In this document: one piece after another, positions 7,526 to 40,205 of the stretch
How positions within the stretch are numbered: the first letter of the stretch is position 1
Layout of the letters: each line of letters opens with the position of its first letter
DNA from: Raja brachyura
Lineage: Eukaryota
Reading direction: 5' to 3'
DNA length: 64,000 nt
Assembly: GCA_963514005.1 (NCBI GenBank)
Contig: OY740821.1
Coordinates: forward strand, 14,198,001-14,262,000
Notes under the pieces: model-generated
What the model was told of the DNA's origin: nothing
Database searches by the model: none
What the model saw: only the letters and a program-made list of their open reading frames with translations
Made by a program: the position numbers and the translations under genes

Positions 7526-7545
7526 GTCACCTGTAGATTTTCTCA
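7526..7545 (+). promoter_or_regulatory. PTF1 bipartite site (E-box CACCTG + TC-box TTTCTCA), CELA1 copy A
   Basis: GTCACCTGtagatTTTCTCA, about 130-145 bp upstream of the TATA box. It resembles the mammalian elastase-1 A element (GTCACCTGTGCTTTTCCC) and is conserved in copy B. Confidence 0.7.
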
Positions 7546-7670: not shown

Positions 7671-7678
7671 TATAAATA
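7671..7678 (+). promoter_or_regulatory. TATA box of CELA1 copy A
   Basis: TATAAATA 50 bp upstream of ATG 7721; conserved in copy B. Confidence 0.75.
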
Positions 7679-7720: not shown

Positions 7721-10700
7721 ATGTTGCAACTGTTGGTTTTAGCAAGTCTTGCCCTGCTTGGTAAGTATAATTTCTATTATTTTGCCTACTAAAAGAGTCG
7801 TTCTATTTCTAATTTCAAAAACAGTTTTAGTTGTTACTGACTAGAATATTAAGTGCCAGGCATTCGCCATTTCTAATACAAATGAGTCATGTGAAAAATA
7901 AAACGTACTAAGGAGCAGTTGAATTAGATTTAAACTTGAAGTCATTGACGTCAAAGACAGCAGTCCTAGGAAATTTAGAAAGGTCCCATCTCCAGTCCTC
8001 CCTCCACTTGTGATATCACATTGGAAACGGGTGAACACAAGAACTGCTCGACCCCATCCCAAGAGAAATGCCAATGCATCTTAGAATGGGGTAAATTCGT
8101 AGAATAACTGAATCGTGTTGGATTTTCCACCTTTCCTGGTACGTTAACTCCAAATAGAGTCACAGAATCATACAGCGTGGAAACAGGCCTTACAGGCCCT
8201 ACGGGTCAACATGCCCACATTACCATCATGTCCCACCTGCCTGCGTTTGGTCCATATCATTCCAAATCTATCCTATCCATGTACCTGTCTAGATGTTTCT
8301 TAAATGTTGTAATAGCACCTGCCTCGCCGACCTCACCCTGGAAACTAGGTCCATATATCCGCTACCCTTTTTGGAAAAAAGTTACCCCTCTGGTTCCTAT
8401 GAAATCTTTGCCCCCTTTCCTTGAACCTATGTCCTCCGGTTCTCGATTCCCCTACTCTGAGCAAAACATTCTGTGCATTTACCCAATCTATGATTTTGTG
8501 TACCTTTATCAGATCACCCCTCATCTTCCTGTACTCCAAGGAATAAAGTTGTAGCCTGCTAATCCTCCCCCATAGCACAGGCCCTCGAGTCCTGGCAAGA
8601 TCCTCATAAGTCTTTTATGCACCCTTTCCAGCGTGACAACATCTTTCCTACAACAGGGTGATCAAAACAAAACACAATACTCTAAATGTGGCCTCACCAA
8701 TGTCTTATATAACTGTAACGGATAACTAAAACTGTCGAAATCATTGAAGTTTTAAGTAATCATGAACTAGTTTCTTGCTCACAGACGCAATCTGACGTGT
8801 GAGTGCACCCTCTCCTGGCTGCAAGGTCCTTGTATGAGCAGCTTCCATGTTGTTGCCAATGGAAATAAGTTCACAACACAAAACTCTACATACTGATTAT
8901 AAATGGACAATTCACTCAGACAGGGCACAAGGATGGGTAATGAGGAAGACTGAAATATTGCATTGAGCTTTTCTGAGGCTTGGGATAGGATGATTAACAT
9001 GTAGGCTTAAGGCTTTGGATCACACATAGCTCCCAAGACCTGGCAAACAGGTAATTTTATTTGACTTAGTCAATTTTCCTAGGACTAGACAGACTGTCTT
9101 TAGTGCATATTATATTATATTACAGGACCAGAACATGGTGATGATGGTTCAATTGAGTGAAAGCACATTTATTCACATAAAGAGTAATCCAATACTGAAT
9201 GAACATGAATAAATTGCATGCTACATTCAAGAGACCTTTAGGTCTTTCCTAATGGATAAACTAGATGGGATAAATGATCTTCTTCATCTACAATTATCAT
9301 TTAAACTTGAAACTCATAAATAAGACGCATTGAACAGTTCTACAGGTTAACAATTTGACCCGACCTGCTCTGGGAGTTATTGCAATTGAATTTCTCACAA
9401 TACAGACTTCTTGAATACATAAAAATAATTTTAGGATAGCAAATATCAGTGAAGATGTAATCAAAACATTTTCTCAATGTATACAGGGCTCTGTTCTGAA
9501 AACAATCGAGTCATTGGAGGGACTGAGGCAAATCGCAATGCGTGGCCATGGCAGGTGAGAAAGATAAACCATTTCCTCAACAACAACGACATATTATCAT
9601 AGGTCTGTAAATTCAGAGAGAATGAAAATATTTGTATGACGAGGTCTTCATCACTTTTCCGTTTTCTCCCCAGCTTATCTCGCAATATTTTCTGCATTCA
9701 TATGAAGCTTTGCTTTTCCCTTGACCAGGTTTCTCTTCAAGGTTTGGCTAGTCAGTGGTACCACACCTGTGGAGGGACTTTAATTCGTAACAGATGGGTG
9801 CTGACTGCTGCTCACTGTGTGGACAGGTGAATGATTTTGATTGGTACTATTTGTCATTTATGCCTATTCTCTGAGTTCAGCCTGAGCTTCCGCAGGTGGA
9901 GTAAAGCTGGTCAAAGCTAAAAGAGCAACATAACCTAAAACTCCTTTAAACATTAATCAAGACTGAGTAAGTGCGAGCACTAGTAATAAAATAAAACTAC
10001 ACCCATTAAAAATCTGCTCATTTGGCACACTTAGCATTTTGGTGAGTTTCAAGGGAGCACACGTAATGGGGCTCCTGTAAATTTCAAGGCAACATGGGTT
10101 TTCTTAGCGGATTATCAAAGCATCACAGTATTGCTGGAAACTACCAAAAATGTTGGTATAAAATACTGCAACATACCATGCACTGATCTGACGTATGCAC
10201 TCCAACAACCTGATGCAGCTTTAACTCTTGTCTGTAACTGTAATTTCAATTCTTGTATTTCTTTCCAACTCTGACTCTCAACATAACTCACTCTGGTGAT
10301 CACTCGAGCACTTGTGCATGTGTGAGCTGTGTAAAACTAATTTCACTGTGCAGTGCATACGTGACAATAAAGAACCATTGAACCATAGACATTTGTTTCC
10401 TGAGTACAACTGATCAGTCGTCCAGTTTTTTGCAAGCCACCATTTAACTTTAACACAAGCACCTCTCATCCAGCTAATCAATGGTTGAGACATGTCTGTT
10501 CCTTTGCATAAAAGTGATGACACCTGTTCACAGTTGCCTTGTACGTTAACTAGACTTGCCCTAAAACCTCCATATTTTATAATGCAAAAAAATCATAACT
10601 GCTATAATTTAGTAAATGCACACCTAACATGATTTTTCTTGTGACATCTGTATCTTCAACTTGCCTGTTTGCTGTAAGTCTGTGAAATGGTTTTATTTCA

Positions 10701-13700
10701 ATCCTGTGTCAGTAAGTTAGTCTACTAGATTCTCAGAGGATGGTAATCCTGTTTGATGTGTTGACCATCATCATGTCAAGGTATTCTGATGAGAGAAGAT
10801 TGAGGTTTATCAGTATTTTTGATAAAAGTTCATTAATGGATTTCACGCCAGCAAGTATTTGAGCATTACTATTTCCAAATGATTTGGAGCAGCTTGGTTT
10901 GGAGCTGTAGGTTGGAGTAGGGGCCGGTACCAAGTATCTCAGACAGAACATAGGATACAGTGCAATGATTCATCATGTTGGGCTAGGTCCCAAAAATATA
11001 TAACGTCCTTACCTATTACACATATAAGACATTGGGGACTTAGGTGAGGATTCCATAGCTTGGTTCAGTGGCAGATTCCATGCCAGCAGCTCAGGTAAGA
11101 ATGGGCCTCATATTTATGCAGGAGCAGGCCTCCATCATCTTGTTAAAGTCTGCTTCTGCATTAAGACCCATGCTGTTCCATCAATGAAAATAAGTTCTCA
11201 ATTGTTGCAGCAGCAACATCAAACAATTTGCACATCAACTGACATTACTGATTTACACCCAGCAATTCTATACAATAGCATATTAAATGCATGGACGACT
11301 ATCATAGAATTTACCATTGCATCGTATTGGAAATACCATTATATTTGACAATTGACTTTCTATTTCAAACTACCACACTGTATATAAAACCCTGGGCCTA
11401 AACAATAGAATGTAGGGCAATGAAGCCACCTGTTTCTCACTCCCTTATCTACCCTTGCCAATCCCTTTTGGTTAAAGTAACATCATTTTTTTCACTTACA
11501 GTCCAATAACATACCGTGTCGTCCTGGGTGATCACAACATTTATGCGGATGATAAAACCGAACAGTACATTTACGTACAATATGCCATCATCCATGAAGG
11601 TTGGAATGGTGATCTTTCAGTGGGGTATGTAACAATATCATATTTTGGTCCAATGCATATTGTGTTGACATCAAAGTTATTTTGAAATCTAGTCTATTAC
11701 AGCCGCTACTTTAAGAACGATCAAAATCTCATAAAAACACTAATTGATAACTTTGTGTAGCAAAAAAATGATATATGCCCACACATCGATTGTTCAGTGG
11801 TCCACCACTCACACTTGTACCACATTTAATGGAACGTGTGCGTCTGTGTGTGAGAGGGAGGCATTCATCTCCTACACAGATCTTTCACCGAAGTATTTGA
11901 GAAGATGAGTGTTACATTCAACATCCAAAAGATAAAGGTCTTCTACTAATCTACCTCACTACACCATGTCAACGGCCTGGAAAACATGCACCGCTTCCCA
12001 TGTCTAAGAAGCTGCCTCTCAGAAAAGGTAGACATTCATATGAAATACACCACTGCCTTCAATGAACCAGAACAAACGTTGGTCAATTGAGGAAAAGGAG
12101 TATTTGAAGGTCAAGATGTCGTCACTCGCATGCTCATCCCCACACTCCAAGAATAGACACTATTCTGAGCTCTGTCATGGACAAAGGAAAAGATGCAAGG
12201 ATGTGCTCAAAGCCACCGTGAAGAAATGCAACATCCCCAATGACTCCTGTGAATCACTGTCCCAAGACAACTCAAGTGGAGAAGAAGCATTCAGGATGGG
12301 ATTGAGAAAAGAGTTCATGCATCAAGAACACATGGAGGCCCTGTGTAAATGACTGAAAAAGCAGACCCCCTCATGAACTAACCATCCACCCACCCCATCA
12401 GCCACCACCTGCCCCATCTGTGGAAGAGTCTGCCGTTCCTACATTGGTCTCATATGCTCAGCTCAGACCCACAAACCAGAGGGGTTGTACATCATCCTTG
12501 ATCCCAAGGAGATGCCTCAGGAAAAGAAGATGCTGACACATGGTCGTATGTATGAGGTAACAGAGGGGACTGCAGTTTGAAGGACAGTATTTAGGAGAGG
12601 AAGGGTGAACAACCAGGAAAGAACCTAAAACTGAATGTAATCCTAATTGTAGGCACTCGCCTTACCATGCATTTGCAACACGAGTAAAAAAATAAAATAG
12701 ACACTAATGCTGCAAATCCATTTTTAATAGGAATGATATTGCGCTGGTTTACCTGGCGCAGGATGCTGTCCTGAACCAATTTGTCCAGCTTGGAAATTTG
12801 CCCGATGCAGGTGCTACCTTACCAAATGACTATCTATGTTACGTCACTGGCTGGGGCTACACTTACAGTAAGTAATTTCAGAATCATGTGCATTTGTGCA
12901 TCTCTTTCCTTCCCATAAATGAGTGGTTGATGGTCGGCTCAATGTAGCTCCCTACCCCAGCAGTGTATCTGCCTCTTAATTGGTCTCTAAAATTTTCCAG
13001 CAAACCAATCAGTTCGAGAATGAATTGGGGACGGGCAAAAGGTTCTGGCTTTGTCCGTTACACGAGTTATTAAAATAGCAGCCCTTATTTTCACAGCTAT
13101 GATTTTAAAAAATCTTGCTATAGATTTTTCATCTTGTTTCAAGGACCTTGTAGTTTCTCAATTTTAATTAAGTATTGCTTGTTTAGGCACATTCCTAAAG
13201 TACCTGATCATCCCAGGGCTACAATTTCCTTAAAGCTCCTTGCCCTGTAATGGTTAAAAACATTGCTAATTTTTACTTAAATAGTGTAGTAAAGGAAAGA
13301 GCGCTCGCGTTGCAGCCCTGTTTCCACCAATCTTTCCACCACCGCGCACAAGAAACTTCTCGGCATCTGCGTACAACTCTGGCTGAACAACTAACCTTCT
13401 TTGTGGACTCGATAAGAAGAAGAAGATGACCTAAATAGTAAGGAAATGGATAAAGCCTATCAAATGGTCTTCAATCTGCTTATCGATGTTCCCATGGACA
13501 AATAGGCAATATGGTGCTAAATGTGATCTGAAATGTTATGTGGAGTATAATAATAATGAATGACAAAAATGCACTAGCAATATAGAATTTCTTCTCTTGA
13601 TGCAGACAATGGATATGTTAGTGCTACTCTTCAACAAGCTGCTATCGGGGTTGTTTCCTATGAAGTATGTTCTCAGCCTGCATGGTGGGGTGACTATGTT

Positions 13701-14795
13701 AACAACAACATGGTGTGTGCTGGAGGTGACGGCATCATTGCTGGTTGTCAGGTAATAAACGTAGATGCTCTCTTACAATGGAAGAGGCATCATCTTTCTT
13801 CTGAGCCATTAGAATGAGGTTTTGTCTGGCTTTGTGGGAGGACGTAAAAGATCACGACTATTTTAAAAAGGAGCAGGGGAATTCTCCCCTGTGTTCTGCA
13901 GCAATATCTAACTCGCAATTAACACAAGCAAAACAAATTATTTGGTCAATGTCACAGTTCTGTTTCTATGTGCAAACTGGCTGCAAAACACTTTGGAATA
14001 CTTTGAGGTTATGAAAGGGCCTATGTAAATGCAACTTTTTCATTATTTCCTTTGCTGTCAGCAAGAAATTGCTGACACATTACGGTTCTTACTTAGTTTC
14101 CATTTTCCTTTCAAGTATTTCTCTTCTTTTTCCTCAATACCATTTTTTTTCTTTCTCTGTTCCTCCCTGTTCCTTTTCCCTTTTTTGTATTACTCTTGAT
14201 TTCAATTACCTTTTAAAATGTAATAATATATTTTATAAACCAGTCTGAGAGATTGAAAATAATGATTTCACCAACTTTCCTCAAAGGGAGATTCTGGAGG
14301 TCCTCTGAATTGTGAGCAGAATGGTATTTACTATGTCCATGGAGCCACAAGCTTTGTAGCTGCAGCAGGATGTGACACATACATGAAACCAACAGTATGG
14401 ACCCGCGTCTCAGCTTACATCGACTGGATCAATACTGTACGTTAGCTTTTGATTTTCATTATATTTTTATATTCTATAAAAGATGCTGCCAGATAAATAT
14501 TCTGATTTAGCACATCTTGCACAGAGCTTTCTGTGATGAGATCGCAGGACACATCTTGTCATGGTGGAAACCGAAATGGAAAATCTGATGTGTAAAATCT
14601 CCAGAAAATAATGTAAATAAGGTGTTCCCCAACCTTTCACTAATGTTGCGGGGAGAGGTTGGGAAACTCTCACGGAAATTCTCCCTCTCACAACACATCT
14701 GTAAGGGACAAGTTCCTGTTCAGACCCAAATTGAAGCGTTTCACAATAAATAAATGCAATCCTGTTTTATTTTCCAGAAAATCGCTTTGTATTAA
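7721..14795 (+). CDS. CELA1: Chymotrypsin-like elastase 1 (pancreatic elastase-1), copy A, 259 aa: join(7721..7760,9487..9554,9729..9826,11502..11624,12731..12867,13606..13751,14287..14436,14778..14795)
   Basis: Signal peptide [16 protein letters not shown], activation site ENNR|VIGG, TAAHC (His57), NDIAL (Asp102), GCQGDSGGP (Ser195), SFV (Val216), KPTV (Thr226). Eight mature-chain Cys and no Cys122 (VQLGNLP). All introns are GT-AG with consistent phases. The CDS is 780 nt and ends KIALY*. AATAAA at 14906. Confidence 0.93.
8157..8720 (-). mobile_element. CR1/HER1-like LINE 3' fragment in intron 1 of copy A
   Basis: ORF 8345..8578(-) [19 protein letters not shown] is the CR1 ORF2 C-terminus. 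Absent from copy B. Confidence 0.8.
12120..12530 (+). mobile_element. RTE-like LINE 3' fragment (partial counterpart at about 32060-32222)
   Basis: [26 protein letters not shown]...CPICGRVC...IGL is an RTE ORF C-terminus, ending in an agaaga tail. Confidence 0.6.
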
Positions 14796-14796
14796 A

Positions 14797-14866
14797 TGCA
14801 GGATTGCGACGGCCAAAGTGCAGGATTGCGACGGCCAAAGTGCAGGATTGCGACGGCCAAAGTGCA
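14797..14866 (+). repeat. 22-bp tandem repeat x3 in the 3' UTR of copy A
   Basis: (tgcaggattgcgacggccaaag)x3 plus tgca. Copy B has a single unit at about 36306. Confidence 0.95.
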
Positions 14867-23813: not shown

Positions 23814-23833
23814 ATCACCTGTAGAGTTTCTCA
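23814..23833 (+). promoter_or_regulatory. PTF1 bipartite site, CELA1 copy B
   Basis: atCACCTGtagagTTTCTCA, with the same spacing as in copy A. Confidence 0.7.
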
Positions 23834-23971: not shown

Positions 23972-23978
23972 TATAAAT
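23972..23978 (+). promoter_or_regulatory. TATA box of CELA1 copy B
   Basis: TATAAAT about 50 bp upstream of the ATG. Confidence 0.75.
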
Positions 23979-24018: not shown

Positions 24019-27000
24019 ATGATGTTGCAACTGTTGGTTTTAGCAAGCCTTGCCCTGCTTGGTAAGTACAGCTTCAATTAGTTTGCTACAAAAAGAGTTG
24101 CTCTATTTCTAATGCAGAAAAAACATTGCATTTTGCGCTTTTTTTGACAGCCAAGTACTTTAAAAAAAGTTTTATTTTTATTTATTAGAGGTACAGTAAA
24201 TGACATCAGTGTATGTCCCATATATATTATTACAATCACTGTACCCCTTAGTTTTTAAGGCTATTAAAAAAAGGAATAGAAACAGAGAAAGTGGGAGAGA
24301 ATTGTGAAAGTGAAGAAGCGTGACAAAGGGAAAGAAGAGAGAGCCCTTGGTCGAGGAGTTAGAGAAAGGAGATTAAGAGATAGACCCTAGAAAAGAAGAG
24401 AGAGAAAGAAGAAAAAAGGAAAATACTGTTACTTTATTGTAAACATCATGCAAAAGGAATTTACCAACTCGGCAATTTTTCATCCCCCTTTACCAACACC
24501 CGACGCTGGTACCTTTTTGAGGTACTATTGCACCCTATCCTTGTAGTAGATCTATAAATGCAGACCACGTCTTATAGAAACAATCTGATTTTCCTGCCAG
24601 GCGGAGTCTCATATCTTTCAGATGTAGTGTTTCAAACATAGTTGAAATCCACATATTTTTACCGTTGGTATGGGAGCATTTTTCCAGAATTTTAAGATGA
24701 GCTTTTTTCCAGTTATTAACCCGTATTCAAATAGATTCTTTTGAAACACATTTAATTCAGGGCTGCCTTCCGTTGTTCCAAAAATAATCCATTCTGCTTT
24801 TGGTGTCAGTTTTACGTTAAATAATTTTGTGAAGATTTCAAAAATTCCAGTCCAAAATTTTTGAATATTTATACAAAAGACAAATGAGTGCGCTATAGTA
24901 GCTTCTTGAGACTGGCATTTATCACAAATAGGTGAGACGTTGGGAACAGCCAAGTACTTTAAATGCCATTTAATGCATTGTAGCAATGATACGCAATGAT
25001 TTGATAAAAGCGGTTAATTACATGACAAGAGAAGCATGCAGCTACATAAGGGACACGGAGAAGCTGATCATCGGGGCAGTTTTGTCCATGGTCATGGGAG
25101 GCTTTTTATAGTAAAAAAACTGCATGACATTTTTATCCATGTGATGATATTTCCACACGTCAGTAGTCATTATTGGCTCAAGAGTAACTCGGGAGAGGAA
25201 CTTGGCACATCGCAGAAATGAGAAGTAAACGGCAAACTTAGACATAACCGTGGGAATTTGGTTAAACACTTGAACATAAACTTGGAATCTCGTACATAAC
25301 CACAAGTCTGATTTTCTCTTTCACTCGAGGTCACTCGTGGGTCAACTCGCACTGTGAGAAACATTAGTTGTTACTGACCAGAAAATTAAATGCCAGGCAG
25401 TTGCTATTTCAAATCAAATGAGTCTCGTGAAGAATAAAGTTTACTAAGGAGCAGTTGAACCAGATTGAAACTTTACGTAATTGACATCAAAGACAGCAGT
25501 CCTGGGAAAAGTTGAAGGTTCCATCTCCAGGTGACAATCTAGAATGCCCCATATCCAGTAGCAAATGCAGAAGGTCCTAGCTCCAGCAGAAAATCTAGAA
25601 GGTCCCATCTCCAGTCCTGCCTCCACTTGTGATATCAGATTGGAAACGCGTGAACAGAAGAACTGCTCAACCGCATTCCAAGAGAAACAGCAATGGATCA
25701 TAGAACCAGAGCAACTGAATCCTGTCGAATTTTCCACCTTTCCTGGTACCTTACGATTCCAAATGTATCAAAAGTATTGCAGGTTTATGTAATCAGCCTA
25801 TATATCATCGTCGTCGAACAACACTAAACTGTATGGTGAGTAAAATTGGACAATTCACTCAGACAGGGCACAAGAATGGGTAATAAAGAAGACAAAAATA
25901 TTGCTTTTTGATGCTTGGGAGAGGGTGATTAACATGTAGGCTTAAGTCTGAAGAAGGGTCTCGAGCCGAAACGTCACCCATTCCATCTATCCAGAGATGC
26001 TGTCTGTCCCGCTGAATTACTCCAGCATTTTGAGTCTATCTTCAGTTTAAACCAGCATGTGCAATTCCTTCCTACACATGTAGGCTTAAGTTTTGGAATC
26101 ACACAGAACTCCCATCATTCTATTCATGATCCGCACCGTATAAATATTCCAGCGGTCAGCGTCCTGACACTGAAGGATGGCTAATAATTTGTACTTAGTT
26201 TCTTTTATTTGCCTATTTGGCGCAGCCAATTTTCCTAGGACTAGATAAACTATTTTTAGTGCTGTTGCCTTGTTGTGCATATTATATTGCAGGAGCAGGG
26301 CATGGTGATGATGGTTCAATTGAGTGAAAAGCACATTTATTTACATAAAGGCTAATCAAACATGGAATGAACTTATGAACAAATTGCATGCTACATTCAA
26401 GAGACCTTAGGGTCTTTTGTAATGGATGAACTTGGGATAAATTATCTTCTTCATCTACGGCACGATGGCACAGCAGTAGAATTACTGCCTTGCAGTGCTT
26501 GCAGCTCCAGAGACCTGGGTTCGTTCCTGACTTTAGGTGCTGTCTGTACGGAGTTTGTATGTTCTACCCGTGACCCCGTGCATTTTCTCCGAGATCTTCA
26601 GTTTCCTCTCACACTCCAAAGACGCACATGTTTGTAGGTTAATTGGCTTGGCATAAATGTAAAATTGTCCCTAGTGTGTGTAGGATAGTGTTAATGCACA
26701 GGGATTACTGGTCAGTGTGGACTCGGTGGGCCGAAGGGCCTGCTTCCGCACTGTTTCTCTAAACTAAACTAAACTAAATTCATAAATAAGACAAATTGAA
26801 CAGTTCTACAGGTTAACAATTTGACCTGACCTGCTCTGGGACCTATTGAAATTTGAATTCTCACATTACTGATGGAATACAGTGCCTTTTACAGACTTCC
26901 CGAATACATGAATTTAATTTTAAGATAGCAAACGTCAGTAAAGATGTCATGAAAACATTTCATTTTCTCAATGTATACAGGGCTCTGTTCTGAAAACAAT

Positions 27001-30000
27001 CGAGTCATTGGAGGGACTGAGGCAAATCGCAATGCGTGGCCATGGCAGGTGAGAAAGATAAAACATCACCTCAACAACAACAACAACATAATCGTAGGCG
27101 CTCTATAAACTCAGAGAGAATGAAAATACTTGTATTAATAAGTCTCCATCACTTTTCTGTTTTCTGCCAGCTTTTCTAGCCACATTTTCTGTTTTTTTTA
27201 ATATGATTTTAACATGTGCCAGTCTAATCATTTTTTTCCCTTGACCAGATTTCTCTTCAAGGTCGGGCTGATTACTGGTACCACTCCTGTGGAGGGACTT
27301 TAATTCGTAACAGATGGGTGGTAACTGCTGCTCACTGTGTGGACAGGTGAATGATTTTGATTGGTACTATTTGTAATTTATAACCTATTCGCTGAGATCA
27401 GCCTGAGCCTCTGCAGGTGTAGTTTAGTTCAGTTTAGTTTAGATATACAGAGTGGAAACAGGCCTTTTTGCCCACCCAGTCTGCGCCGACCAGCAAACAT
27501 CCTTGCACTAGTTCTGGTCCGACACGCTAGGGACAATTTACACGCCAATTAACCTACAAACCTGCGCGTCTTTGGAATGTGGGAGGTAGCCGGAGCACAT
27601 TCAAACTCCGTATAGACAGCACCCACAGTCAGGATAGACCCCAAGTCTCTGGCGCTATAAGGCAGCAACTCTACCTCTGCACCATTGTGCTGGTAAAATC
27701 CAAAAGAGCAACAGAACCCAAAACTCCTTGAAACATTTATTAAGGCTAAATATGTGCAAGCACTAGAAATAAGATACAGTAAAACTCCATCGCAGGTGAT
27801 AAACTATTGACCAACATCCACTATAAATCCACTGACTCCCATGGCTATCTGGACTACACTTCTTCCCACCCTGCTTCCTGTAAGGACTCCATCTCCTACT
27901 CCCAATTCCTCCAACTACGCCGCATCTGTACCCAAGATGAGGTGTTCCACACCAGGACATCAGAGATGTCCTCTCTTCAGGGAACGGGGGTTCCCCTCTT
28001 CTACTAGAGATGAGGCTCTCACCAGGGTCTCTTCTGTACCCCATCACTCTGCTCTCACTCCCCATCCCCCCACTCGTAACAAGGGCCGAGCCCCCCTTGT
28101 CCTCACCATCCACCCTACCAGCCGTCACATACAACAAATAGAACAAATAATCCTCTGACATTTTAGCCACCTCCAACGTGATCCCATCACTGCCACATCT
28201 TCCCATCACCTCCCCTGTCTGCTTTCCGTAGAGACCACTCCCTCAGTAACTCCCTGGTCAATTCGTCCCTTCCCACCCGCACCACCCCATCTCCGGGCAG
28301 TTTTCCTTGCAACCGCAAGAAATGCTACACTTGTCGCTTTACCACCCCCCTTGACTCCATTCAAGGACCCAAGCAGTCTTTCCAGGTGCGGCAGAGGTTC
28401 ACCTGCACCTCCTCCAACCTCATCTATTGCATCCGCTGCTCTAGAAGTCAGCTGCTCTACATCGGCGAGACCAAGCGTAGGCTTGGCGATCGCCTCGCCA
28501 AACACCTCCGCTCGGTTCGCAATAAAGGGCCTGTCCCACTTTCACGACCTCTGCCGAGTTTGCCCTCGACTCATACTCGCAGCATGGTCGTCACAAGGTC
28601 ATAGGTAGGTCATAGCAGGCCATGATGCTAGTCGTAGGTACTCGTGGCATCAAGTAGGTCGGGGCGTTTTTTCTAGCCTGATGAAAAATGTCCACGAGTA
28701 AAAAAGGTTGTGAATTAGGTCGTGAAAGTGGGACAGGCCCTTAACTAACTTGATCTCCCGGTGGCTCAGCACTTCAACTCCCCTTCCCATTCCGAATCTG
28801 ACCTTTCTGTCCTGTGCCTCCTGCATGGCCAGAGTGAGGACCACCGTAAATTGGAGGAGCAGCACCTCATATTTCGCTTGGGCAGTTTGCACCCCAACGG
28901 TTTGAACATTGACTTCTCTAATTTCAGGTAGTCCCTACTTTCTCCTCCCCTTCTCAGCTCTCCCTCAGCCACTGGCTCCACCTGCCCCCCCCCCCCCCCC
29001 CCACACCCTCACATCAGTCTGAAGAAGGGTTTCAACCCAAAACGTTGCCTATTTCCTTCACTCCATATATACTGCATGAACCGCAGAGTTTCTCCATCAT
29101 TCCTGTCTACCTTCGATTTTCCAGAATCTGCAGTTCCTTTTTAAACATACAGTAAAACTCTGTTCCTTTGGCATGCTTAGAGCTCCTGTGAATTTCAAGG
29201 GAGCACAGGAAACGTCACCAGTGAGCTGGATGCAAACCATCGGGATTTCCAAATAATGGGATAGCAGATTATCTATGTTTTACAATATTGCAGGAAACTA
29301 CAAAAAGTGATGGTATAAAATACTGTATCACACCATTCACTAATCTGATTTATGTACTTCAACACCCTTATGCAGCTTTGACTTGACTGTAACTGTAATT
29401 TCAATTCATATATTCTTTCTAGCTCCGACTCTCAACACAACTCACTCTGGTGATCACTCGAGCTCTTGTGCATGTGTGAGCTGTGTAAAACTAATTTCAC
29501 TGTGCAGTGCATACATGACAATAAAGAACCATTGAACCATAGGCGTTTGTTTCCTGAGTACAGCTGATCAGTCGTCCAGTTTTTTCGCAAACTGCCCTTT
29601 AACTTTAACACACGCACCTCTCACCCAGGTAATCAATGAGAGGTGTCTGTTTCTTTGCATAAAAGTGATGAGTCCTGTCTTGTGAGCTACCCAGACTTAT
29701 TCTGAACCCTCCATATTTTACAGTGCAAAAAAATCACAACTGCAATAATTTGATCAATACACACTTAACATGATTTTGTGATGCCATCAGTATCTTAATG
29801 TTTGCTGTGAGTCTGGGAAATGTTTTTTTTCCTATCCTGTGTCAGTAAATAAGTTTACTACATTTTCAGAGGAAGGCAATGCACTACATTCTGTGAAAAT
29901 ATTCCCAAACCTTTCCACCTTTGTAATTTTGAAATCTGTGTTTGTGTCCTAAGTATTTGGTTCTTCCCATTTCCCTCCCTTTCTCCAGATCGTTGTCTTT

Positions 30001-33000
30001 CCAATCTATTCATTCGGTTTCCTCCCAAACTCCAAAGACGTACATGTTTGTAGGTAAATTGGGTTGGTGTAAGTGTAAATCGTCCGTAGTGTGTGTAGGA
30101 TAGTGTTAGTGTGCGGGGATCATTAGTCGATGGGGACACGGTGGGCCGAAGGGCCTGTTTCCGTGCTGTGTCTCTAAAGTAAATTAAACTAATAAAATGT
30201 AGGGCATTCCGTTGCTGAAGCCACCTTCCCGCACACCAATCTACCCTTGCCAATCCATTTTGGTTAAAGTAGGTATGTTACAAAACTTACCTTTACCGGC
30301 GCTGCACTTCTGCCGCTCCCCGTGTGCGCGACTTTCGCGCCTTGCAGAGGGGGGCGGGCTTAAAGTGCCGTTTTTCCACAGGCCTGGATAATCGATGAAT
30401 GTCGGGCGATTTGGTTGCTGAAGAAAAATCGCTCCGACATTTAATGAATGGTGGTATTTTTAAATTACTCTAGATTATTTATTAACTAGAGTAATTTAAA
30501 AATCACCTTCAAAAGCCGTGAGCGCAGACAACCGGAAGCATTTTGCGTAGGGGAGAAAAAAAGGTAAATACTTTATTTTTATATTAAAAGTTGGTTTTTC
30601 GGGAGGCATTAATAATATTTTTATGTTGCGAAATGGGGTCCCCAAAAAATGTATGAACCCCCAATATTTTTCCCCCCGACTTCACTGCTAACCGCAACGT
30701 TCCAATCCACTGCATTCCACTAAAACCCACTCGCTAGTTGATTTAAATGGCCATTAATTTACAGGCATTAAACACTAAATTCCTTCCATTTGGCCCAGAA
30801 ATTCATGAAAATGAAATTTAAAAATTATGTTATATTGTGGATTATTGTGTGAATGTTATTTGGACACTTAGGCAATTTTAAAAAAGTTTATCTTTTCTTA
30901 AGAAATGGATAGATGCTTAGATCTACTCATTGAATTTTGTAATTAGCTACAATTAGATAACTAACTAATTATATGCTTTAATTTCAGGTAATCCAAGTAA
31001 GATTGTTTAATATTTGTTTCAGAATGCTTCAATCTATAATAACTGAAAATTTCATTGAGTTCTCTTAATTTTTAAGAATGTTGCGGACTTTTAACTTTTC
31101 CAGATCACAGCTTTTGAGTTCAGTCAATTGAAAGGCAATGGGAAGCAAGATGCTCATTTCCGAGTATGAAAATGGCCATAACTTTCTTAATACTGAAGAT
31201 ATGAAAGTAAATTAGGTGTCAAATTAAACTTCTTTTTATGCTTTATCTGATGGGATAAATTGCAGACTTGATTTTTAAAATCTCAAAATTTTGTAACATT
31301 GCTAGTTAAAGTGACTTTTGTTTTCACTTACAGTCCAGGTATAACACGCCGTGTGGTCCTGGGTGATCACAACCTTTATGAGGATGACAAAACCGAACAG
31401 TACATTTCCGTACAACATGTCATCATTCATGAAGGTTGGAATGGTGATCTTGCTCTTGGGTATGTAACAATATCATATTTTGGACCATTGCATATTGTGT
31501 TGACATTTGTGTTGTTCCAAATAACTTGTGTTGACAAGTTATTTTGAATAACTTTTGAATTTTGAATAACTAGTCTATTACAGCCGCTACTCGAATCACA
31601 AGCTCATAAAAACACCATTGATGTGGAATTACCAATGACTCATTGATAACTTTGTGTAGCAAAAAAAATATATGCCCACACATCGATTCTTCAGTGGTCC
31701 ACCACTCACACTCGTACCACATTTAATGGAACGTGTGCGTCTGTGTGTGAGAGGGAGGCATTCATCTCCTACACAGATCTTTCACCGAAGCATTTGAGAA
31801 GATGAGTGTTACATTCAACATCCAAAAGATAAAGGTCTTCTACTAATCTACCTCACTACACCATGTCAACGGCCTGGAAAACATGCACCGCTTCCCATGT
31901 CTAAGAAGCCGCCTCTCAGAAAAGGTAGACATTCATATGAAATACACCACTGCCTTCAATGAACCAGAACAAACGTTGGTCAATTGAGAAAAAGGAGTAT
32001 TTGAAGGTCAAGATGTCGTCACTCGCATGACTGACAAAGTAGACCATGACCAATATATCACCATGAACTAACAATCCACCCACCCCATCAGCCGCCAACT
32101 GCCCCATCTGTGGAAGAGTCTGCCGTTCCTACATTGGTCTCATAAACCAGCTCAGACCCACAAACCAGAGTGGTCGTACATCATCCTTGATCCCAAGGAG
32201 ATGCCTCAGAAAAAGAAGAAGATGCTGACACATGGTCGTATGTATGAGGTAACAGAGGGGACTGCAGTTTGAAGGACAGTATTTAAGAGAGGAAGGGTGA
32301 ACAACAAGGAAAGAACCTAAAACTGAATGTAATCCTAATTGTAGGCACTCGCCTTACCATGCATTTGCAACACGAGTTAAAAAATAAAATAGACACTAAT
32401 GCTGCAAATCCATTTTTAATAGGAATGATATTGCGCTGCTTTACCTGGCGCAGGATGCTGTCCTGAACCAATTTGTCCAGCTTGGAAATTTGCCCGATGC
32501 AGGTGCTACCTTACCAAATGACTATCTATGTTACGTCACTGGCTGGGGCTACACTTACAGTAAGTCATTTCAGAATCATGTGCATTTGTGCATCTCTTTC
32601 CTTCCCATAAATGAGTGGGTGATGGTTGGCTCAATGGCTCCAACATAAATAATGACCAGGATTTTTATCTTCACCGCAATATGTAATCTGATCATGGTAA
32701 GGATTTCTGACCTTGTGTTCTTTAGCTTTTTTCCAGAAGGGCTACAGCAGCCTCTACCAGGGAGTTAGCCAGGAGGGGGTCACAGAGACTGTGCAGGAAA
32801 GGTCATATAGTAGTATGAAATGGTCAACAACTTTGTACCATTCTCTCTGCAAATGACATCACCATGGACTTTGCTACTTAACATATTACAGGGCCTTTAT
32901 TTTCTTATGGTGACACACAATGGGTTATCTCTCATGTCCAGCATTGCTTTAGCAAATGGAGTACTGATTCCGCCAAAGCAGAGATGGTTGAAAACTTCAC

Positions 33001-36000
33001 ATTTCTAGGAGTAAATATATCACCAGCAAAATGTCCTGGACCACCCATATTGAAGCAATGTCCAAGAAAGAACACTAATGCCTCGACTTCCTGAGAAGGC
33101 TTAGGAAGTTTGGCATGTTCCAACAACTCTCACCAACTTCTACAGATGGACTGTAGAAAACATTTTATCGGGATGCATCACAATATGCTCTATAGAAGAC
33201 CGTAGGAAATTGCAGAGAATTCTGGATGCAGCCCAGATCATCACACAAACCTACCTCCCTTCCATTGACTCAATTTACACCTCACACTGCCTCGGCAAGT
33301 CCACCAGCAAAATCAAGGATGAGTCGCACCCTGGCCACTCCCTATTCTCTCCTCTCCATCAGGCAAGAGGTACAGAAGTGTGAAAATGTACACTAGATTC
33401 AGGAACTGTTTCTTCCCAACTATTATCAGGCAACTAAACCATTCTACCATCAACTAGACAGCAGTCCTGAGCCACTATCTAACTCATTGGACACCCTTAG
33501 ACTATCTTTGATCGGACTTTACCTTGCACTAAATGTTATTCACATTATTCCCTTTATCATGTCTCTATACACTGTGGATGGCTTGATTGTAATCATGTAT
33601 TGTCTTTCTGCTGACTGGTTAGCATGCAACAAAAGCTTTTCACTGTACCTTGGTACACGTGACAACAGACTAAACTCAACTAAACTGCAAATTGCTTCAC
33701 ATGTGTTGGAAGTGGAAGTGAAAGTGGGATAACATGGAACTTGTGTGAACGGATGATCAATGGTCAGCGTGGACTCGATGGGTTGAAGGGTGGTATCTCC
33801 AAAGTAAACTAATTAATAAAGCGGCAGTCCTTATTTTCACTTCTATGTTTTTGTAAAACCTAGCTATATATTTTTCATCTTGTTTTAAGGAATTTGTGGT
33901 TTCTGAAGTTTAAAGTAAGTGTGCTTGTTTAGGCACATGCCTAAAGTAAACCAGACTGATCCCCCGGGGCTATAATTTTCTTCAAGCTCCTTGCCATGTA
34001 ATGGTCAAAAGGATGGCTTCAGACAAAAAGGCAATATGATGCTGGATTACCGTCTAAAATATCATGTGGAATATAATAATAACTAATGACAAAAATGCAA
34101 TAGCAATACAGAATTTCTTCTCTTGATGCAGACAATGGATATGTTAGTCCTACTCTTCAACAAGCTCCTATCAAGGTTGTTTCCTATGAAGTATGCTCAC
34201 AGCCTGACTGGTGGAGCCACTATGTCAACACAAATATGGTGTGTGCTGGAGGTGACGGCATCACTTCTGGTTGTCAGGTAATAAACTTAGCTACTCGCTT
34301 TCAATGGAAGGACATTGCAACAATTCCCAAAGTTTAGACACCACTTACACCTCTATCTTTTATTAACTTCAACTGGCTTCCTTATCAAGTATTCCATGAG
34401 CTCCCTCTCGTTTTTACTGACACAAACTTCCCAATTGTTTCTTCAAAGTCCTCAACATAGTTCAGTACTCACATAAACTGTCTCAGAACATGGTAGGTTC
34501 CAATTGCACTCCAGAGACGTGAACATTTAATCAGGGTTGGTACCTTGTGCTGCTCAGAAGGAGTGCCATACTCTTGGAGGTATCATCTTTCTGCTAAACC
34601 ATAAGAATGAGGCTTTTTCTGGCTTAGTGGGTGGACATAAAAGATCACTTGACTATTTTGAAAAGGAGCAGGGGAATTCTCCCCAGTGTTCTGCAACTTG
34701 TTCATTATTTTCTCTGTTGTCGTTCTCTTGCTGTCAGCAATTTCTTGCTGACATATCAGTCCTTACTTCACTTCCATTATCTTTTGCAAATATGTCTCTT
34801 CATTTTCCCCAAATACAATGTTCTTTTGCTTTTTCTGTTCCTTCCCATTCATTTTCCTTTTTGTGTATGACTCTTGATTTCAATTACCTTTTAAAATGTA
34901 ATAATATATTTTATAAACCAGTCTGAGAGATTGAAAGTAATGATTTCACCAACTTTCCTCAAAGGGAGATTCTGGAGGTCCTCTGAATTGTGAGCAGAAT
35001 GGTATTTACCATGTCCATGGAGCCACAAGCTTTGGAGCTGCAGCAGGATGTGACATGTTCATGAAACCAACAGTATGGACCCGCTTCTCAGCTTACATCG
35101 ACTGGATCAATACTGTACGTTAGCTTTGGATTTCCATTATAATTTTATGTTTCATACAAGATGCTACTACAAGCACCACTTATTTTATGTGAGGGTCACC
35201 TTCTTAAAAATCAGTGCTTATCTCAAAAATGCATAAATTAAGCATAAGAATGTATGCAAGTGGTACAAGTTAAAGGAAAAGCCATATAAGCATCTACATC
35301 ACACAATAAATAGTTCATTTATGACAAGCATTATTATTTTACCTTACTCATTAATAAAGAAAAAAGTTAATAAAGTAAAAACAGAGATGTTAAAAGATTG
35401 AGAGGGGAAGATAAACAACTTCAATATGTTGGTTGATGGAGAAAACAGAGTTTCGCACTAAAAAGATGTGTGAAATACAGCAAGTTGAAATAAACACGCA
35501 CCAAGCAAAGATGACGCAGACAAAAAGTGAGAAAGTGGTAAGTGTATTGTACAGTATCTTGCAAGGCATCGCACATGACTACGCTGTTAGGCGTGGATTT
35601 GAGTGCATTATTTCAAGAATACGAGTGCGTAAATTAGGCGTTGGTATTAATTATACAAGCACACTATTCCAAAAATGTATGGATCAAACACGTATAAAAC
35701 GTGATATGCCTGTATTCTGATTTATTGCACCTTGCACAGAGCTTTCCGTGATGGGATCATGGGATCTCATCTTCATTATGGCTTCCTTAATGATTATCCA
35801 TCCATTTAAATCTGAAATTACTTACAGAGGGAAATGGATTGGGGGAAATGCAGAGATGCTGATTAACACGATAAATACACGCAAACAAGGGAAATACAGC
35901 CTCTAGTAAATGTCCAAGCAATACTAAACATCAGAGGTGTAGTCAGGGTAGAAATGCTGGAAATAAAGTAAATGTGTTTTCCCCCAATGTTCCACTGAAG

Positions 36001-36304
36001 TTGCAGCGAGAGATTAGAAATTCAATAGACAATAGACAATAGGTGCAGGAGTAGGCCATTCAATGTGATCATGGCTGATCATCCCCAATCAGTACTCCGT
36101 TCCTGCCTTCTACCCATATCCACTGACTCCGCTATCTTTAAGAGCCCTATCTAGCTCTCTCTTGAAATTCTTAAGGAAATTCTACTCAACTCCACCTCAC
36201 CCAACACATCTGTAAGTCATGTTCCTGTTCAAATCCAGATCAAAGCATTTCAGAAATATTAATGAAAATCATGTTTTATTTTCCAGAAAATCGCTTATTA
36301 TTAA
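24019..36304 (+). CDS. CELA1: Chymotrypsin-like elastase 1-like, copy B, 260-261 aa: join(24019..24061,26981..27048,27249..27346,31334..31459,32423..32559,34132..34277,34965..35114,36287..36304)
   Basis: Same 8-exon structure and phases as copy A. ATGATG start (24019 or 24022). Catalytic triad intact (TAAHC, NDIAL, GDSGGP). S1 residues S189/G216/T226. Ends KIAYY*. AATAAA at 36370. Confidence 0.92.
24165..24945 (-). mobile_element. L1/Tx1-type LINE 3' fragment with 18-bp TSD
   Basis: ORF2 zinc knuckle [21 protein letters not shown]...FW. TSD acagccaagtactttaaa at 24147-24164 and 24946-24963. Confidence 0.85.
25945..25978 (+). ncRNA. Minimal type I hammerhead ribozyme-like motif (Penelope-associated)
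   Basis: agt-CTGAAGA-agggtctcgagcc-GAAA-C-GTC-acc: catalytic boxes CUGANGA and GAAA, a stem II hairpin, a loopless palindromic stem III (ACGT), and a GUC cleavage triplet. Confidence 0.6.
25947..26075 (+). mobile_element. 129-bp Penelope terminal insertion with a hammerhead-like core and 15-bp TSD
   Basis: TSD acatgtaggcttaag at 25932-25946 and 26076-26090. The empty site is in copy A near 8997-9011. Confidence 0.85.
26458..26780 (+). mobile_element. HE1/V-SINE-like SINE, full length
   Basis: tRNA-derived head with A/B-box-like motifs (tggcacagcagtag...ggttcgttcct), a conserved core, a CR1-type tail and (ctaaa)n. Confidence 0.8.
27421..27690 (-). mobile_element. HE1/V-SINE-like SINE
   Basis: (tttag)n tail at the left, followed by the reverse complement of the SINE body. 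Confidence 0.75.
27788..29146 (+). mobile_element. Penelope-like retroelement (5'-truncated RT end + GIY-YIG endonuclease), 14-bp TSD
   Basis: [17 protein letters not shown]...[11 protein letters not shown] (RT thumb) and [14 protein letters not shown]...[13 protein letters not shown] (GIY-YIG). TSD atacagtaaaactc at 27774-27787 and 29147-29160. Confidence 0.9.
28526..28741. mobile_element. PIF/Harbinger-type MITE nested in the Penelope element
   Basis: 25-bp TIR AGGGCCTGTCCCACTTTCACGACCT and its reverse complement, with a TAA TSD on both sides. Confidence 0.85.
30270..31304. mobile_element. Non-autonomous DNA transposon, copy 2 (7-bp TSD gttaaag)
   Basis: TAGGTATGTTACAAAA ... TTTTGTAACATTGCTA. 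gttaaag at 30263-30269 and 31305-31311. A single gttaaag is at the empty paralogous site near 11471. Confidence 0.9.
32950..33690 (+). mobile_element. Rex1/Babar-like LINE 3' fragment in intron 5 of copy B
   Basis: Decayed FLRRLRKFG...NFYR..VE..LSGCIT..., followed by a gtgacaac..actaaact tail. Confidence 0.7.
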
Positions 36305-39255
36305 ATGCTGGATTACGACGGCCAAAGTGCAACATGCAACCAATACATCTATTTCCATTAACTGGATTAAATAAAGCAATAAAATAAAATTCATAATTTT
36401 TCCTGTTTGTTGCCTCTTGATATTGATATATAGTGTCATAACAACTTGCCCACATCGAACATGTCCCATTTCATTCACTTTACATTTTATATATATTTTT
36501 AAAGTTTCTGGCACTCCATGGTGCTTTAGAGACATGGGAGGGGTGTCATTAGTTGGCCAGGGGTGTATTGACGTTTTATTATCTCATGACCTCTGTTAGT
36601 CAGGAAAAACTGATTATCCAGAAAGACTCTGGAACTGAGGGTGACAGAAAATCGGTGGTCAACCTGTATATTGTATCCCTCAGAATACTCTCTGGTGACT
36701 TTCCGACCACAGATGTTAGGCTCACTGGCCTGTAGTTCACAACTGTTGCCCTGCAGCCCTTCTTGAACAGAGGCACAACATTTGCCACCCTCCAATCTTC
36801 CAGTACAGTGAAAAAGTATGAGATAAGGATATAAGAATAGAAGATGCGCAAAATGTGAAACTAGGGGAAGGAGTATAAATGGAGGTGGACGGGGGGAAGG
36901 GGAAAGGGAGAAAAGAGTGCGCATCCAGGTGAAAATTTGTAGTAGGTGCTAAATTCATTAAATTATCTACAGCACATTCGGAAACACAGATAGAGACATA
37001 GATAAGGCATTATTGCAGCCTTTAAAGATATGTTAGATATGGGAAAATAAAACTTACATCCTGATTTTAAGGCTGATATTTTTGATTTGTGATCGTGCTA
37101 GTGAGATATCAATTTAAATATTTACATTTTCAACACTTAATATGTAAAATGTTGCGGGGAGTACTACAATTTCAAACATGCTATACTTTGAATGTGATAG
37201 TAAATAAACCCCTAGCTTCCCTTTCATTTGAATGTAAAAGATCGCAAAAGCATTCCTTGAGGAAGAGCAGGGCAGTTTTCCCTAATGTCCTGTTCAATCT
37301 GGTCATCATCAGGCTGCTGTTTGCAAGAACTCAGTATGCACAAATCGACTCTCACATAATACATATTACAAAGTGATTACACACGGAAGTACCAATGCTT
37401 TGGACATCCAGCAGTTGTGCAAAATGCTACATAAATGCAAATTCATTCCGTTTATTATTACAGTAAATGGAGGAAAGCGTGAATTGAAGCATAATTTGCT
37501 GCTACACCCAACCAGATTCCACATTGAGAGTAATATTCTGGGATATCCACCTATATCATTGGGAGCGTTTTGTATATCTCAGACAATTTCCTCAGACAAT
37601 CAGAACTTTAAACAGGCATAGTATTGGGGCCACGGTATGTATATTCAACCTATCAAATTCTAGAAGCAAGGATCACTTACATCACAGGATTATTTCAATA
37701 AAGTTATTGCTAATTGAGTGTTGAGTGTGAATTAATAAATCAAGCTCTACCCAAAGAAAGTTGTGTGGCATTTGGTTGCCATGATAATTGCCACAATATA
37801 ACCCTAAGACTTTACTAAGATACAAATATATATACTCATCCCATCTTCCAATTGCTCCAAAAGCTTTTCACTGTACCTCAGTACACGTGACAATAAACTG
37901 AATTGAACTGAACCAAAAAATCCCATGAGATGCCTCAAAGCTGAAAATTGGTCATTTCCCATCAATTTTGAACTCACTCAGTCATCCCGTTCTCTCCCTA
38001 ACCCTATCTGTAAAACCATTGCCATCCTTACCACTGGGTAGCTGGGTGCTCCAGGATTGCTGATCTAATTCAGTTACAGTGGTCCAAATGGATTTTTGGA
38101 CGTTCCTGGATCAGAAATTACCTTCAAACCATCCATGTGTTTTTCCATCTGGAAGCAATAGAGTAAATATTTATCAAAGAAATCTTGTTTTTAGGTGAAT
38201 AATAAACACTAGTTCGTCAAAGAAAAAGTGGTCTGTAGAGAGCAGTTGTATGAGAGCTGCCTCACAATCAAAACATAACACGTCTTCCACAAAGTTGAAG
38301 TGTGTTTGTGAAAAGTGAAAAATTAGATGCTAGAAATCTGAAATAAAAAAACTGAAAATTCTGGATAAATTCTGCAGGTCAGGCACTATCTGTGGAAAAA
38401 GAAAAACAGAGTTGACATTTCAGGTCAATCACATTTCATCAGTCTGGTGAAATATAAAAGATCCTTAATTTGAAATGCTAACTCTGTTTCATTCTGCATA
38501 GATGCTGCCTGACCTGTTGCTATTTCCACCATTTTGTTTTCTTCCTGTCCATCTGGTCAAGTCTTCTTACTGGTCAGTCACTCCTGACTGAGGATGACTT
38601 GCTTCCACTTTAGCCCTATGAATCCTAGGGGTGGCTGATGAGACCAATAAATATAGGAACTACAAACCCTTCTACAACAAGGGCGGGAGGTTCCTGACAG
38701 GGTGAGTGGACGGGTAGCTTGTGAGATGGTGTGCTCCTTCTCCACTTTCGGTGGTTATGATCCACAGAATTCCAAATATAAGTGGGGAAGTTGCATTTTT
38801 TCCCAATATACCTTTGAGCAAATCTTTGAATTTTTATCTGTCTGCCTGCTAATCTCTTGTGATGGAGGTCAGAATAGAGTGTGTGGTTTTGAGATCAGGC
38901 ACGCCAATGAGATGACCTGCCTCATGGAGGCAACTGAGTGTAATTAGGACCTGAATGTTGGTCTGGAAAAGAACATTGATGTTGATTTTTTATCCTCCTT
39001 CCAGACAGTTTGAATGGTACAACAATAAATGTAATTGTGCCAGCAGAGCACAGTTGGAATACCTCCGGTATTATCTCTGTGGAGCTTGCACGTCCTCCCT
39101 GTGACCACGTGGATTTCCTCTGGTTGTTCCAGTTTGTAGGTTAATTGGTCTTTGTAAATTGCCCCAAGTGTTTAAGGAGTGGACGTGAACGTGGGATAAC
39201 ATAGAAACAGTGTGAGTGGGTGATTGCTGATCACCGTGGACTTCGTGGGTCAAAG

Positions 39256-39499: not shown

Positions 39500-40205
39500 T
39501 ATCCTATCGCCCCGAATTGTGAACACTTCCATCAGGTAGTACCTCGACCCTATGCATTTTGGTGAAAAGAAGCTGAATATCTCCGCTTTCCCCCTCACAA
39601 CTAAAGCCTCTCACCCACCGCTGCCGCCCACGCCTCTGCTTGCGTGAGACTCTTGTGTCCCGTCTCCACGGCAACACGAAGCCGAGCCCGCCAAATTTGA
39701 CCATTCTGGGAATAAACATGTAAACATGGCAAATGTCGTTAGTGGGGACCCTCTGCGGCTTTATTTAACGAGACATTGTTTAACTTGCCTTTTTTTGAGA
39801 GAAGATAGACGACATCTCGAGTCGACGACCTTTGCACCCGCCCAGCCCCCTTGTTTTGTAAGATGGCGCTCGCTCGGGGATGCTTCCGGCTTCAGCGGCT
39901 AAAGGGACGTAGTTCCTCGGAGTTTTTATACTATCCGACGATCTGTGTCTCTCGGTAAGAAACGTTTTAGCCTGGGGCTTTGGTGCTCTGTATTTATTAA
40001 TATAGGTCACCGTTTCTTTATTAGTTTTCCATCGTATCATTTCCAGACCTCCGAGTCCCGCGACCCACCCACACGGGTCGCGCAATAGCGAGGGTGTGTT
40101 CCAAATATTAAATACCCGGGTCACTGTCATCTGACAAATTCAACTTTAAGCATCACCAGTTAAACATTGCAGCAGCCGTCGCGCCTTCACTGAGGCTGCC
40201 GGTCA
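39500..40205 (+). promoter_or_regulatory. CpG-rich promoter of LETMD1
   Basis: High CpG density, GC boxes (cccgccc), a YY1-like AAGATGGCG overlapping the ATG, and an ETS-like CTTCCGG. Confidence 0.7.

Follow-up and report, generated by a model that had tools for sequence, protein, structure and literature searches.

S1 specificity is shaped by surface loops as well as by the residues of the pocket. According to PMC2930297, Val216 and Thr226 fill on average 43 and 31 cubic angstroms, respectively, of the chymotrypsin cavity. PMC8398347 gives a preference for leucyl bonds for chymotrypsin C (CTRC) and cleavage after Leu, Met and Phe for CELA2, and describes the CTRC propeptide as disulfide-tethered to Cys122. 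Residue 216 tracks specificity among mast-cell chymases as well (PMC6941018). The two skate genes described here, copies A and B, lie in a window of 64 kb, the whole stretch of DNA that was analysed, and their best match in both sequence and fold is pancreatic elastase-1/CELA1 of peptidase family S1A (pig 1b0e, 1c1m and 8b04; salmon 1elt). Copy B is a real and conserved variant of this well-known enzyme, and is likely to be functional. The literature covered, which extends to few of the subscription journals where the older fish-elastase biochemistry appeared, contained nothing on duplicated skate elastases or on a CELA1 with Gly216. The novelty resides in the fact that ten residues have stayed copy-specific in the two skates, among them a Phe231 absent from the rest of the sample, although conversion has likely acted on both flanks of the exon 7 difference. 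We consider it fairly probable that copy B is an intact CELA1 tandem duplicate with a half-opened S1 pocket and a predicted Leu/Met preference at P1, and that the pair has been held apart by likely selection amid conversion.

Structure of the gene pair and residues of the S1 pocket

Two complete CELA1 (elastase-1) genes follow each other on the plus strand, their exons joined by splice signals, with AG/GT at seven of seven introns in each copy (Table 1). Each begins with what looks like a signal peptide, continues with a short propeptide that ends in Arg before VIGG, and has the catalytic triad; the copies are about 88% identical. Both products are likely pancreatic zymogens that, from what is known of the family, trypsin would activate at that Arg. 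A six-frame motif scan of the 64-kb window returned the motif sets of copies A and B and no third protease copy. In the 3' UTR of copy A a 22-base unit occurs three times (about 14800-14865), with a single unit in copy B. A 1-kb element, likely a mobile element, is present twice with 91% identity, between the copies (17329-18352) and in intron 3 of copy B (30267-31304), and the stretch at about 20050-21170, also between the copies, resembles by eye a LINE reverse-transcriptase remnant. Another plus-strand gene starts near 39864 (39864-43225 and onward); its exon at about 43065-43225 has no Pfam match and may resemble LETMD1, which lies near CELA1 in human; this neighbourhood would fit orthology.

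A PTF1-like bipartite site is located about 145-155 bases upstream of the TATA box in each copy. These are the only 2 matches to the pattern in 64 kb, against a chance mean of 0.02 for a pattern that was written after the sites had been seen; a first pattern, with a 6-base spacer, gave 0 matches in the window. Bipartite E-box/TC-box sites bind PTF1 in acinar enzyme genes (PMC2586380), and the TC part of the skate pattern is one base off the TTTCCC given there.

Chymotrypsin numbering was obtained by placing the pig elastase-1 chain (P0041) on the standard scheme; His57, Asp102, Ser195 and cysteines 42, 58, 136, 168, 182, 191, 201 and 220 fell at the expected numbers. Exon 7 of copy B has no stop in its translation, carries Ser195 and reads SFG at 214-216, where the twin exon of copy A reads SFV. 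Exon 6 ends GIIAGCQ in copy A and GITSGCQ in copy B, and KPTV, with Thr226, is present in both. The motifs and the gta and gga codons on which the original prediction was built were thereby confirmed in the translated exons. The pocket of copy A consists of Ala189/Gly190/Val216/Thr226, plus Val231, and that of copy B of Ser189/Gly190/Gly216/Thr226, plus Phe231. The replacement of Val216 by Gly is a single-base codon change with respect to copy A, and exon 7 of copy B further differs by Thr221a to Met and Val231 to Phe; Thr213, Gly190, Gln192 and Thr226 are still elastase-1-like. Position 122 is Asn in both copies, in agreement with the elastase-1 scaffold lacking Cys122 that had been claimed, and Gly216 is derived inside CELA1.

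Ser189 had been counted, together with Gly216, as part of a rewired, open pocket. Its standing was judged in a survey of the best 120 of 1015 and the best 120 of 1536 matches, taken as 90% cluster representatives, in which 223 of 229 domains were parsed and the 217 without Cys at the 122 position formed the survey set; the 90% clusters may contain further B-type skate and ray copies that these counts do not show. Ser189 is found in 151 and Ala189 in 66 of the 217 listed domains. Since Ser189 is present in 136 of the 198 Val216 domains and is native to pig elastase-1 (residues 188-192, VRSGCQ), it does not point to an open pocket. Ala189 occurs in four of four shark/ray outgroup rows, with Ser in Chiloscyllium. 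Judged by these sequences, Ala189 is the older state in sharks and rays, and the change in copy B a return to the common elastase-1 state, a common toggle, so that the proposed direction from Ala to Ser was right but the state it leads to is not new. The informative change in copy B is Gly216, not Ser189, and of the proposed rewiring it is the loss of Val216 that stands. Phe231 is present in 2 of the 217 listed domains, both of them skate B copies, and, without counterpart elsewhere in that set, it might lower the activity of copy B. Ala212 (35022-35024 in copy B, 14344-14346 in copy A) and Trp228, which are Val and Phe in pig elastase, are found in both copies and in five of six other cartilaginous-fish proteins; that Ala212 makes room for Phe231 in copy B is a guess.

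Table 1. Positions, strand and basis of the features of the two CELA1 copies in the 64-kb window
Feature	Position	Strand	Basis or remark
PTF1-like bipartite site, copy A	7528..7545	+	E-box, 5-nt spacer, TC-like box; putative function
TATA box, copy A	7671..7676	+	sequence
CELA1 copy A	7721..14795	+	259 aa, 8 exons, open frame
Copy A exons 1-4	7721-7760, 9487-9554, 9729-9826, 11502-11624	+	
Copy A exons 5-8	12731-12867, 13606-13751, 14287-14436, 14778-14795	+	
Ala189 codon (gct), copy A	13740..13742	+	sequence
Val216 codon (gta), copy A	14356..14358	+	sequence
PTF1-like bipartite site, copy B	23816..23833	+	E-box and TC-like box; putative function
TATA box, copy B	23972..23977	+	sequence
CELA1 copy B	24022..36304	+	260 aa, 8 exons, open frame
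Copy B exons 1-4	24022-24061, 26981-27048, 27249-27346, 31334-31459	+	
Copy B exons 5-8	32423-32559, 34132-34277, 34965-35114, 36287-36304	+	
Near-identical blocks around exon 5	31714..32618 (copy B), 11817-12926 (copy A)	+	likely gene-conversion tract
Thr188a-Ser189 codons, copy B	34263..34268	+	sequence
5' portion of exon 7 with the end of the preceding intron, copy B	34870..35009	+	139/140 bases as in copy A; likely conversion tract
76-base island, copy B	35010..35085	+	all 6 exon 7 differences (His208, Gly216, Met221a, Phe222, Phe231)
Gly216 codon (gga), copy B	35034..35036	+	sequence and sequencing-run contigs
Thr226 codon, copy B, kept	35070..35072	+	sequence
Phe231 codon, copy B	35085..35087	+	sequence and domain survey
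AATAAA poly(A) signal candidate, copy B	36370..36375	+	sequence

Relatives, descent and recurrence of Gly216

The long near-identical blocks between the copies could be taken to mean that the gga codon, or copy B altogether, stems from misassembly or from an allele that was not collapsed. The copies differ, however, at 495 of 4274 aligned intron and flank positions, and both types are met in Rhinoraja and in run X1. The exon search gave eight proteins among 12 candidates, all of them cartilaginous-fish CELA1; the nearest proteins point to a skate as the source of the window. Rhinoraja longicauda has both types on one contig, P0004 with Ala189/Val216 and P0003 with Ser189/Gly216/Thr226/Phe231; six other cartilaginous-fish species, with one representative each, have Val216 (four) or Ile216 (two). 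Four sequencing runs (X1, X3, X10 and X19), from 20 listed, were compared with the sequence. One contig of run X1, which may come from the source sample itself, equals copy B over 34980-35115 and another has six other letters, including T at 35035, and the contigs of runs X3 and X10 (organisms B and D) over 35035 show no T among the differences listed. With the Rhinoraja pair and the contigs from other organisms reading G, the concern that gga might be an assembly error is settled, and the artefact explanation can be given next to no credence.

Run X19, from the related organism G and by guess an RNA run, has coverage in 10 of 30 bins, exon bins only. Its A-type contig joins exon 6 to exon 7, the only exon-joining contig seen, and over 35035 lie a contig with T and an 80-letter contig that departs from copy B at a single letter. 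At 80 and 152 letters the B-type pieces are short, and depth cannot rank the types; the pattern would agree with both types being transcribed in a relative. For the exon 6-7 stretch no RNA data set is on record, which has no bearing on expression.

Copy B is a trypsin-fold protein with His57/Asp102/Ser195, four disulfides and no Cys122, the fold being taken from the AlphaFold model of P0003 (Rhinoraja B). This model is confident over the catalytic domain, with an rmsd of 1.2 to pig and salmon elastase, which shows that the elastase fold is kept; such a fold match is silent on pocket shape or preference. The last 76 residues of the 334-aa model are mostly predicted with very low confidence and likely result from an annotation that missed the final splice.

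Descent was analysed in a 70-row LG+G4 tree from which the pocket columns 189, 190, 216 and 226 had been dropped and which held no CELA3, CTRB or CTRL row; deep nodes are weak in these trees. All four skate proteins group together (100/93) within cartilaginous-fish CELA1 (100/99), so that copy B lies with CELA1 and away from CELA2/CTRC. Grouping copy B with six CELA2/CTRC-like rows was rejected (p-AU 0.007), so that the tandem CELA1 paralogy of the original prediction is upheld by phylogeny. A CELA2/CTRC gene as the donor of the pocket, through recombination, was also rejected, the codon being one base from that of copy A and its flanks nearly identical to A. The skate proteins group by copy in a quick tree and in 52% of the bootstrap trees of the 70-row analysis; grouping by copy or by species is ambiguous, apparently because of mosaicism among the four proteins. 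The duplication is older than the split of the two skate lineages.

Gly216 is found in 15 of the 217 listed domains, and in 13 after P0014, a CELA2A caught by an offset error, and P0013, outside the trees, were set aside: two skate B copies, eight frog and three teleost proteins. All eight frog proteins (P0036, P0064, P0077, P0079, P0088, P0092, P0120 and P0121) carry Ser190/Gly216/Ser226 on a CELA1 scaffold, that is, an elastase-2-like pocket. With Asn192 and no Cys122, they are scattered among Val216 copies in the tree, a pattern of convergence or exchange within the cluster that is possibly more striking than the skate case. The teleost proteins (P0104, P0157 and P0196, from toadfish, Oryzias melastigma and Acanthochromis) have Ser189/Gly190/Gly216/Thr226, like copy B. 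On a 39-row subset a single clade of all Gly216 CELA1 rows was rejected (p-AU 2e-44), as were the groupings of skate with frog (1e-33) and of skate with toadfish (3e-6). A 105-row FastTree places every teleost Gly216 row closest to a Val216 row and requires three changes. The 8 Gly216 changes on the 70-row tree were not taken as a count of origins, the frog copies being scattered, likely by conversion. Among the matches listed, 2 of 100 newly found teleost domains have Gly216. As read from these alignments and trees, Gly216 in CELA1 is uncommon but recurrent, with separate origins in frogs, teleosts and skates; the independent switch proposed for one skate duplicate keeps its separate origin and loses its uniqueness. 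The survey also contains a frog CELA1 subgroup with Phe192 for Gln192 (P0022, P0031, P0034, P0043, P0044, P0050, P0057, P0073, P0080, P0090, P0108 and P0113), and P0093, labelled as a Klebsiella pneumoniae serine protease and 72% identical to fish elastase-1, is likely contamination.

Likely gene conversion and the exon 7 island

The sites that split the four skate proteins divide into 10 by copy, 7 by species and 36 of other patterns, 5 of the latter stemming from the aberrant P0003 tail. The A proteins of the two skates are 89% identical, yet the ten copy-specific residues, at 31, 73, 99a, 99b, 173, 188a, 189, 216, 221a and 231, are kept in both species. Between copies A and B exon 2 is identical (68/68), and exon 5 differs at 1 of 137 positions with a near-identical upstream intron. 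The tract that precedes the exon 7 island stops 25 bases before codon 216, and the 42 bases after 35085 are again identical between the copies. The species-type sites 203, 206 and 240 flank the island, a position that suggests homogenisation of both flanks by conversion later than the split of the two skates; that the flanks were homogenised at all is likely. Since the duplication, conversion has likely maintained the similarity over much of both genes, and selection likely keeps the pocket-side residues 188a, 189, 216 and 221a of copy B apart, together with 99a/b, 173 and 231.

A distinct island is what selection would produce, the statistics being weak. Between the copies pN is 0.063 and pS 0.074 overall; in exon 7, 5.5 of 6 changes are non-synonymous, too few to tell, and in the A versus B comparison neither the overall nor the exon 7 pN/pS shows positive selection. 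The S1 segments, which were chosen after the data had been seen, hold four of the ten copy-specific sites, a weak enrichment (p 0.028 relative to the whole chain and p 0.10 when the species-type sites serve as reference). The closeness of pN to pS and the lack of a significant test for positive selection are what would be expected if copy B were a redundant duplicate drifting under relaxed constraint, with Gly216 tolerated and not selected. Such drift is nevertheless improbable in our estimation, given that the frame, splice sites and promoter-like elements of copy B are intact and that the same ten residues were kept in two skates despite conversion on either side of the island.

Predicted specificity and comparison with known enzymes

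The change from Val216 to Gly likely makes the S1 pocket of copy B wider at the mouth, and Thr226 would still narrow its wall; by the cavity volumes given above, the larger block has been removed and the smaller kept. Since Gly216 with Thr226 is the chymotrypsin C arrangement and chymotrypsin C prefers leucyl bonds, copy B is predicted to cut after Leu and Met first, in a chymotrypsin C-like manner, and after Phe second, and copy A would keep the preference for Ala/Val. The original prediction went further, to the open pocket of chymotrypsin and elastase-2, which does not agree with the retained Thr226, this residue being Ser in pig elastase-2 and normally Gly in chymotrypsin (PMC2930297). Gly216 with the small Gly190 does leave room, and Phe is also among the P1 residues accepted by elastase-2 and chymotrypsin C (PMC8398347), as a fully open pocket preferring Phe/Tyr would imply. 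This possibility is nonetheless rather unlikely, in view of Thr226 and of the elastase-2-like frog duplicates, which changed 190 and 226 too (8/8), as copy B did not.

Conversely, a single change may shift preference only a little, with Thr213, Gly190, Gln192 and Thr226 unchanged and the loops contributing to specificity too. Copy B could then be active with P1 only slightly broadened, or with reduced activity, Thr226, Thr213 and the elastase-1 loops dominating and the copy-specific residues mattering more for subsites or stability. The four unchanged pocket residues, the location of 6 of the 10 copy-specific sites outside the S1 segments and the unique Phe231 all speak for such a small shift. 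Every Gly216/Thr226 reference seen is, however, chymotrypsin C or elastase-2-like by label, and Val216 takes up more of the cavity than Thr226 does (PMC2930297), so that we hold it to be a minority prospect, unlikely though not negligible.

If assays agreed with the half-opened pocket, the A/B pair would provide a close natural before-and-after for the textbook view of residues 216 and 226 as determinants of elastase specificity, and would tell apart the contributions of the two residues; in the frog and teleost repeats, elastase-1 would likewise have given rise by convergence to an activity like that of elastase-2 or chymotrypsin C. More tentatively, at somewhat under even credence, CELA1 duplicates may have re-invented Leu/Met cutting at least five times via residue 216 (skates, frogs and three teleost lineages), with selection in skates holding the 76-base island against conversion and the unique Phe231 possibly repacking the core. 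Were this recurrence true, it would constitute a natural replicate series of P1 specificity change in one to three steps. The scope is a detail of digestive-enzyme evolution and not a new kind of system. The catshark pancreas transcriptome contains Cela1, elastase 2a, elastase 3b, Ctrb1 and Ctrl transcripts (PMC4362833); cartilaginous fish therefore likely already have open-pocket enzymes, and copy B need not be a replacement.

Among described enzymes, copy B shares with elastase-1/CELA1 (EC 3.4.21.36) Ser189, Gly190, Gln192, Thr213, Thr226, the lack of Cys122 and its nested position in the clade, and departs from it by Gly216, Phe231 and Met221a; of the two elastase-1 blocks, that of Val216 is present in copy A and absent in copy B, and that of Thr226 is present in both. 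A close-paralog specificity shift tied to residues 189, 190, 216 and 226 is found in the mast-cell chymases of rabbit, guinea pig and hamster, which differ from copy B in belonging to another family, in running from Gly to Thr, Ala or Val and in having been measured experimentally (PMC6941018). The frog and teleost Gly216 duplicates share the CELA1 scaffold and the company of Val216 copies in the same animals or groups; unlike copy B, they lack Phe231 and arose separately, and those of frogs also have Ser190 and Ser226. Elastase-2/CELA2 (pig 1bru) has Gly216 and Ser189 as copy B does, but Ser190, Asn192, Ser226 and Cys122 set it apart, and of the Ser190/Gly216/Ser226 and Cys122 that mark CELA2 copy B has only Gly216. 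Chymotrypsin C (EC 3.4.21.2; 1pyt_D, 4h4f and deer P0070) comes closest in the pocket: Gly216 with a beta-branched residue at 226 is found in copy B, as Gly216 and Thr226 are in 1pyt_D and P0070, and the predicted Leu preference is common to both. It differs by Cys122, to which its propeptide is tethered and where copy B has Asn, by Ala190/Asn192/Val213 in P0070, none of which is in copy B, and by its clade, orthology being rejected in the grouping test above. Copy B is hence CELA1 by descent and predicted to be chymotrypsin C-like by its pocket, without being a chymotrypsin C.
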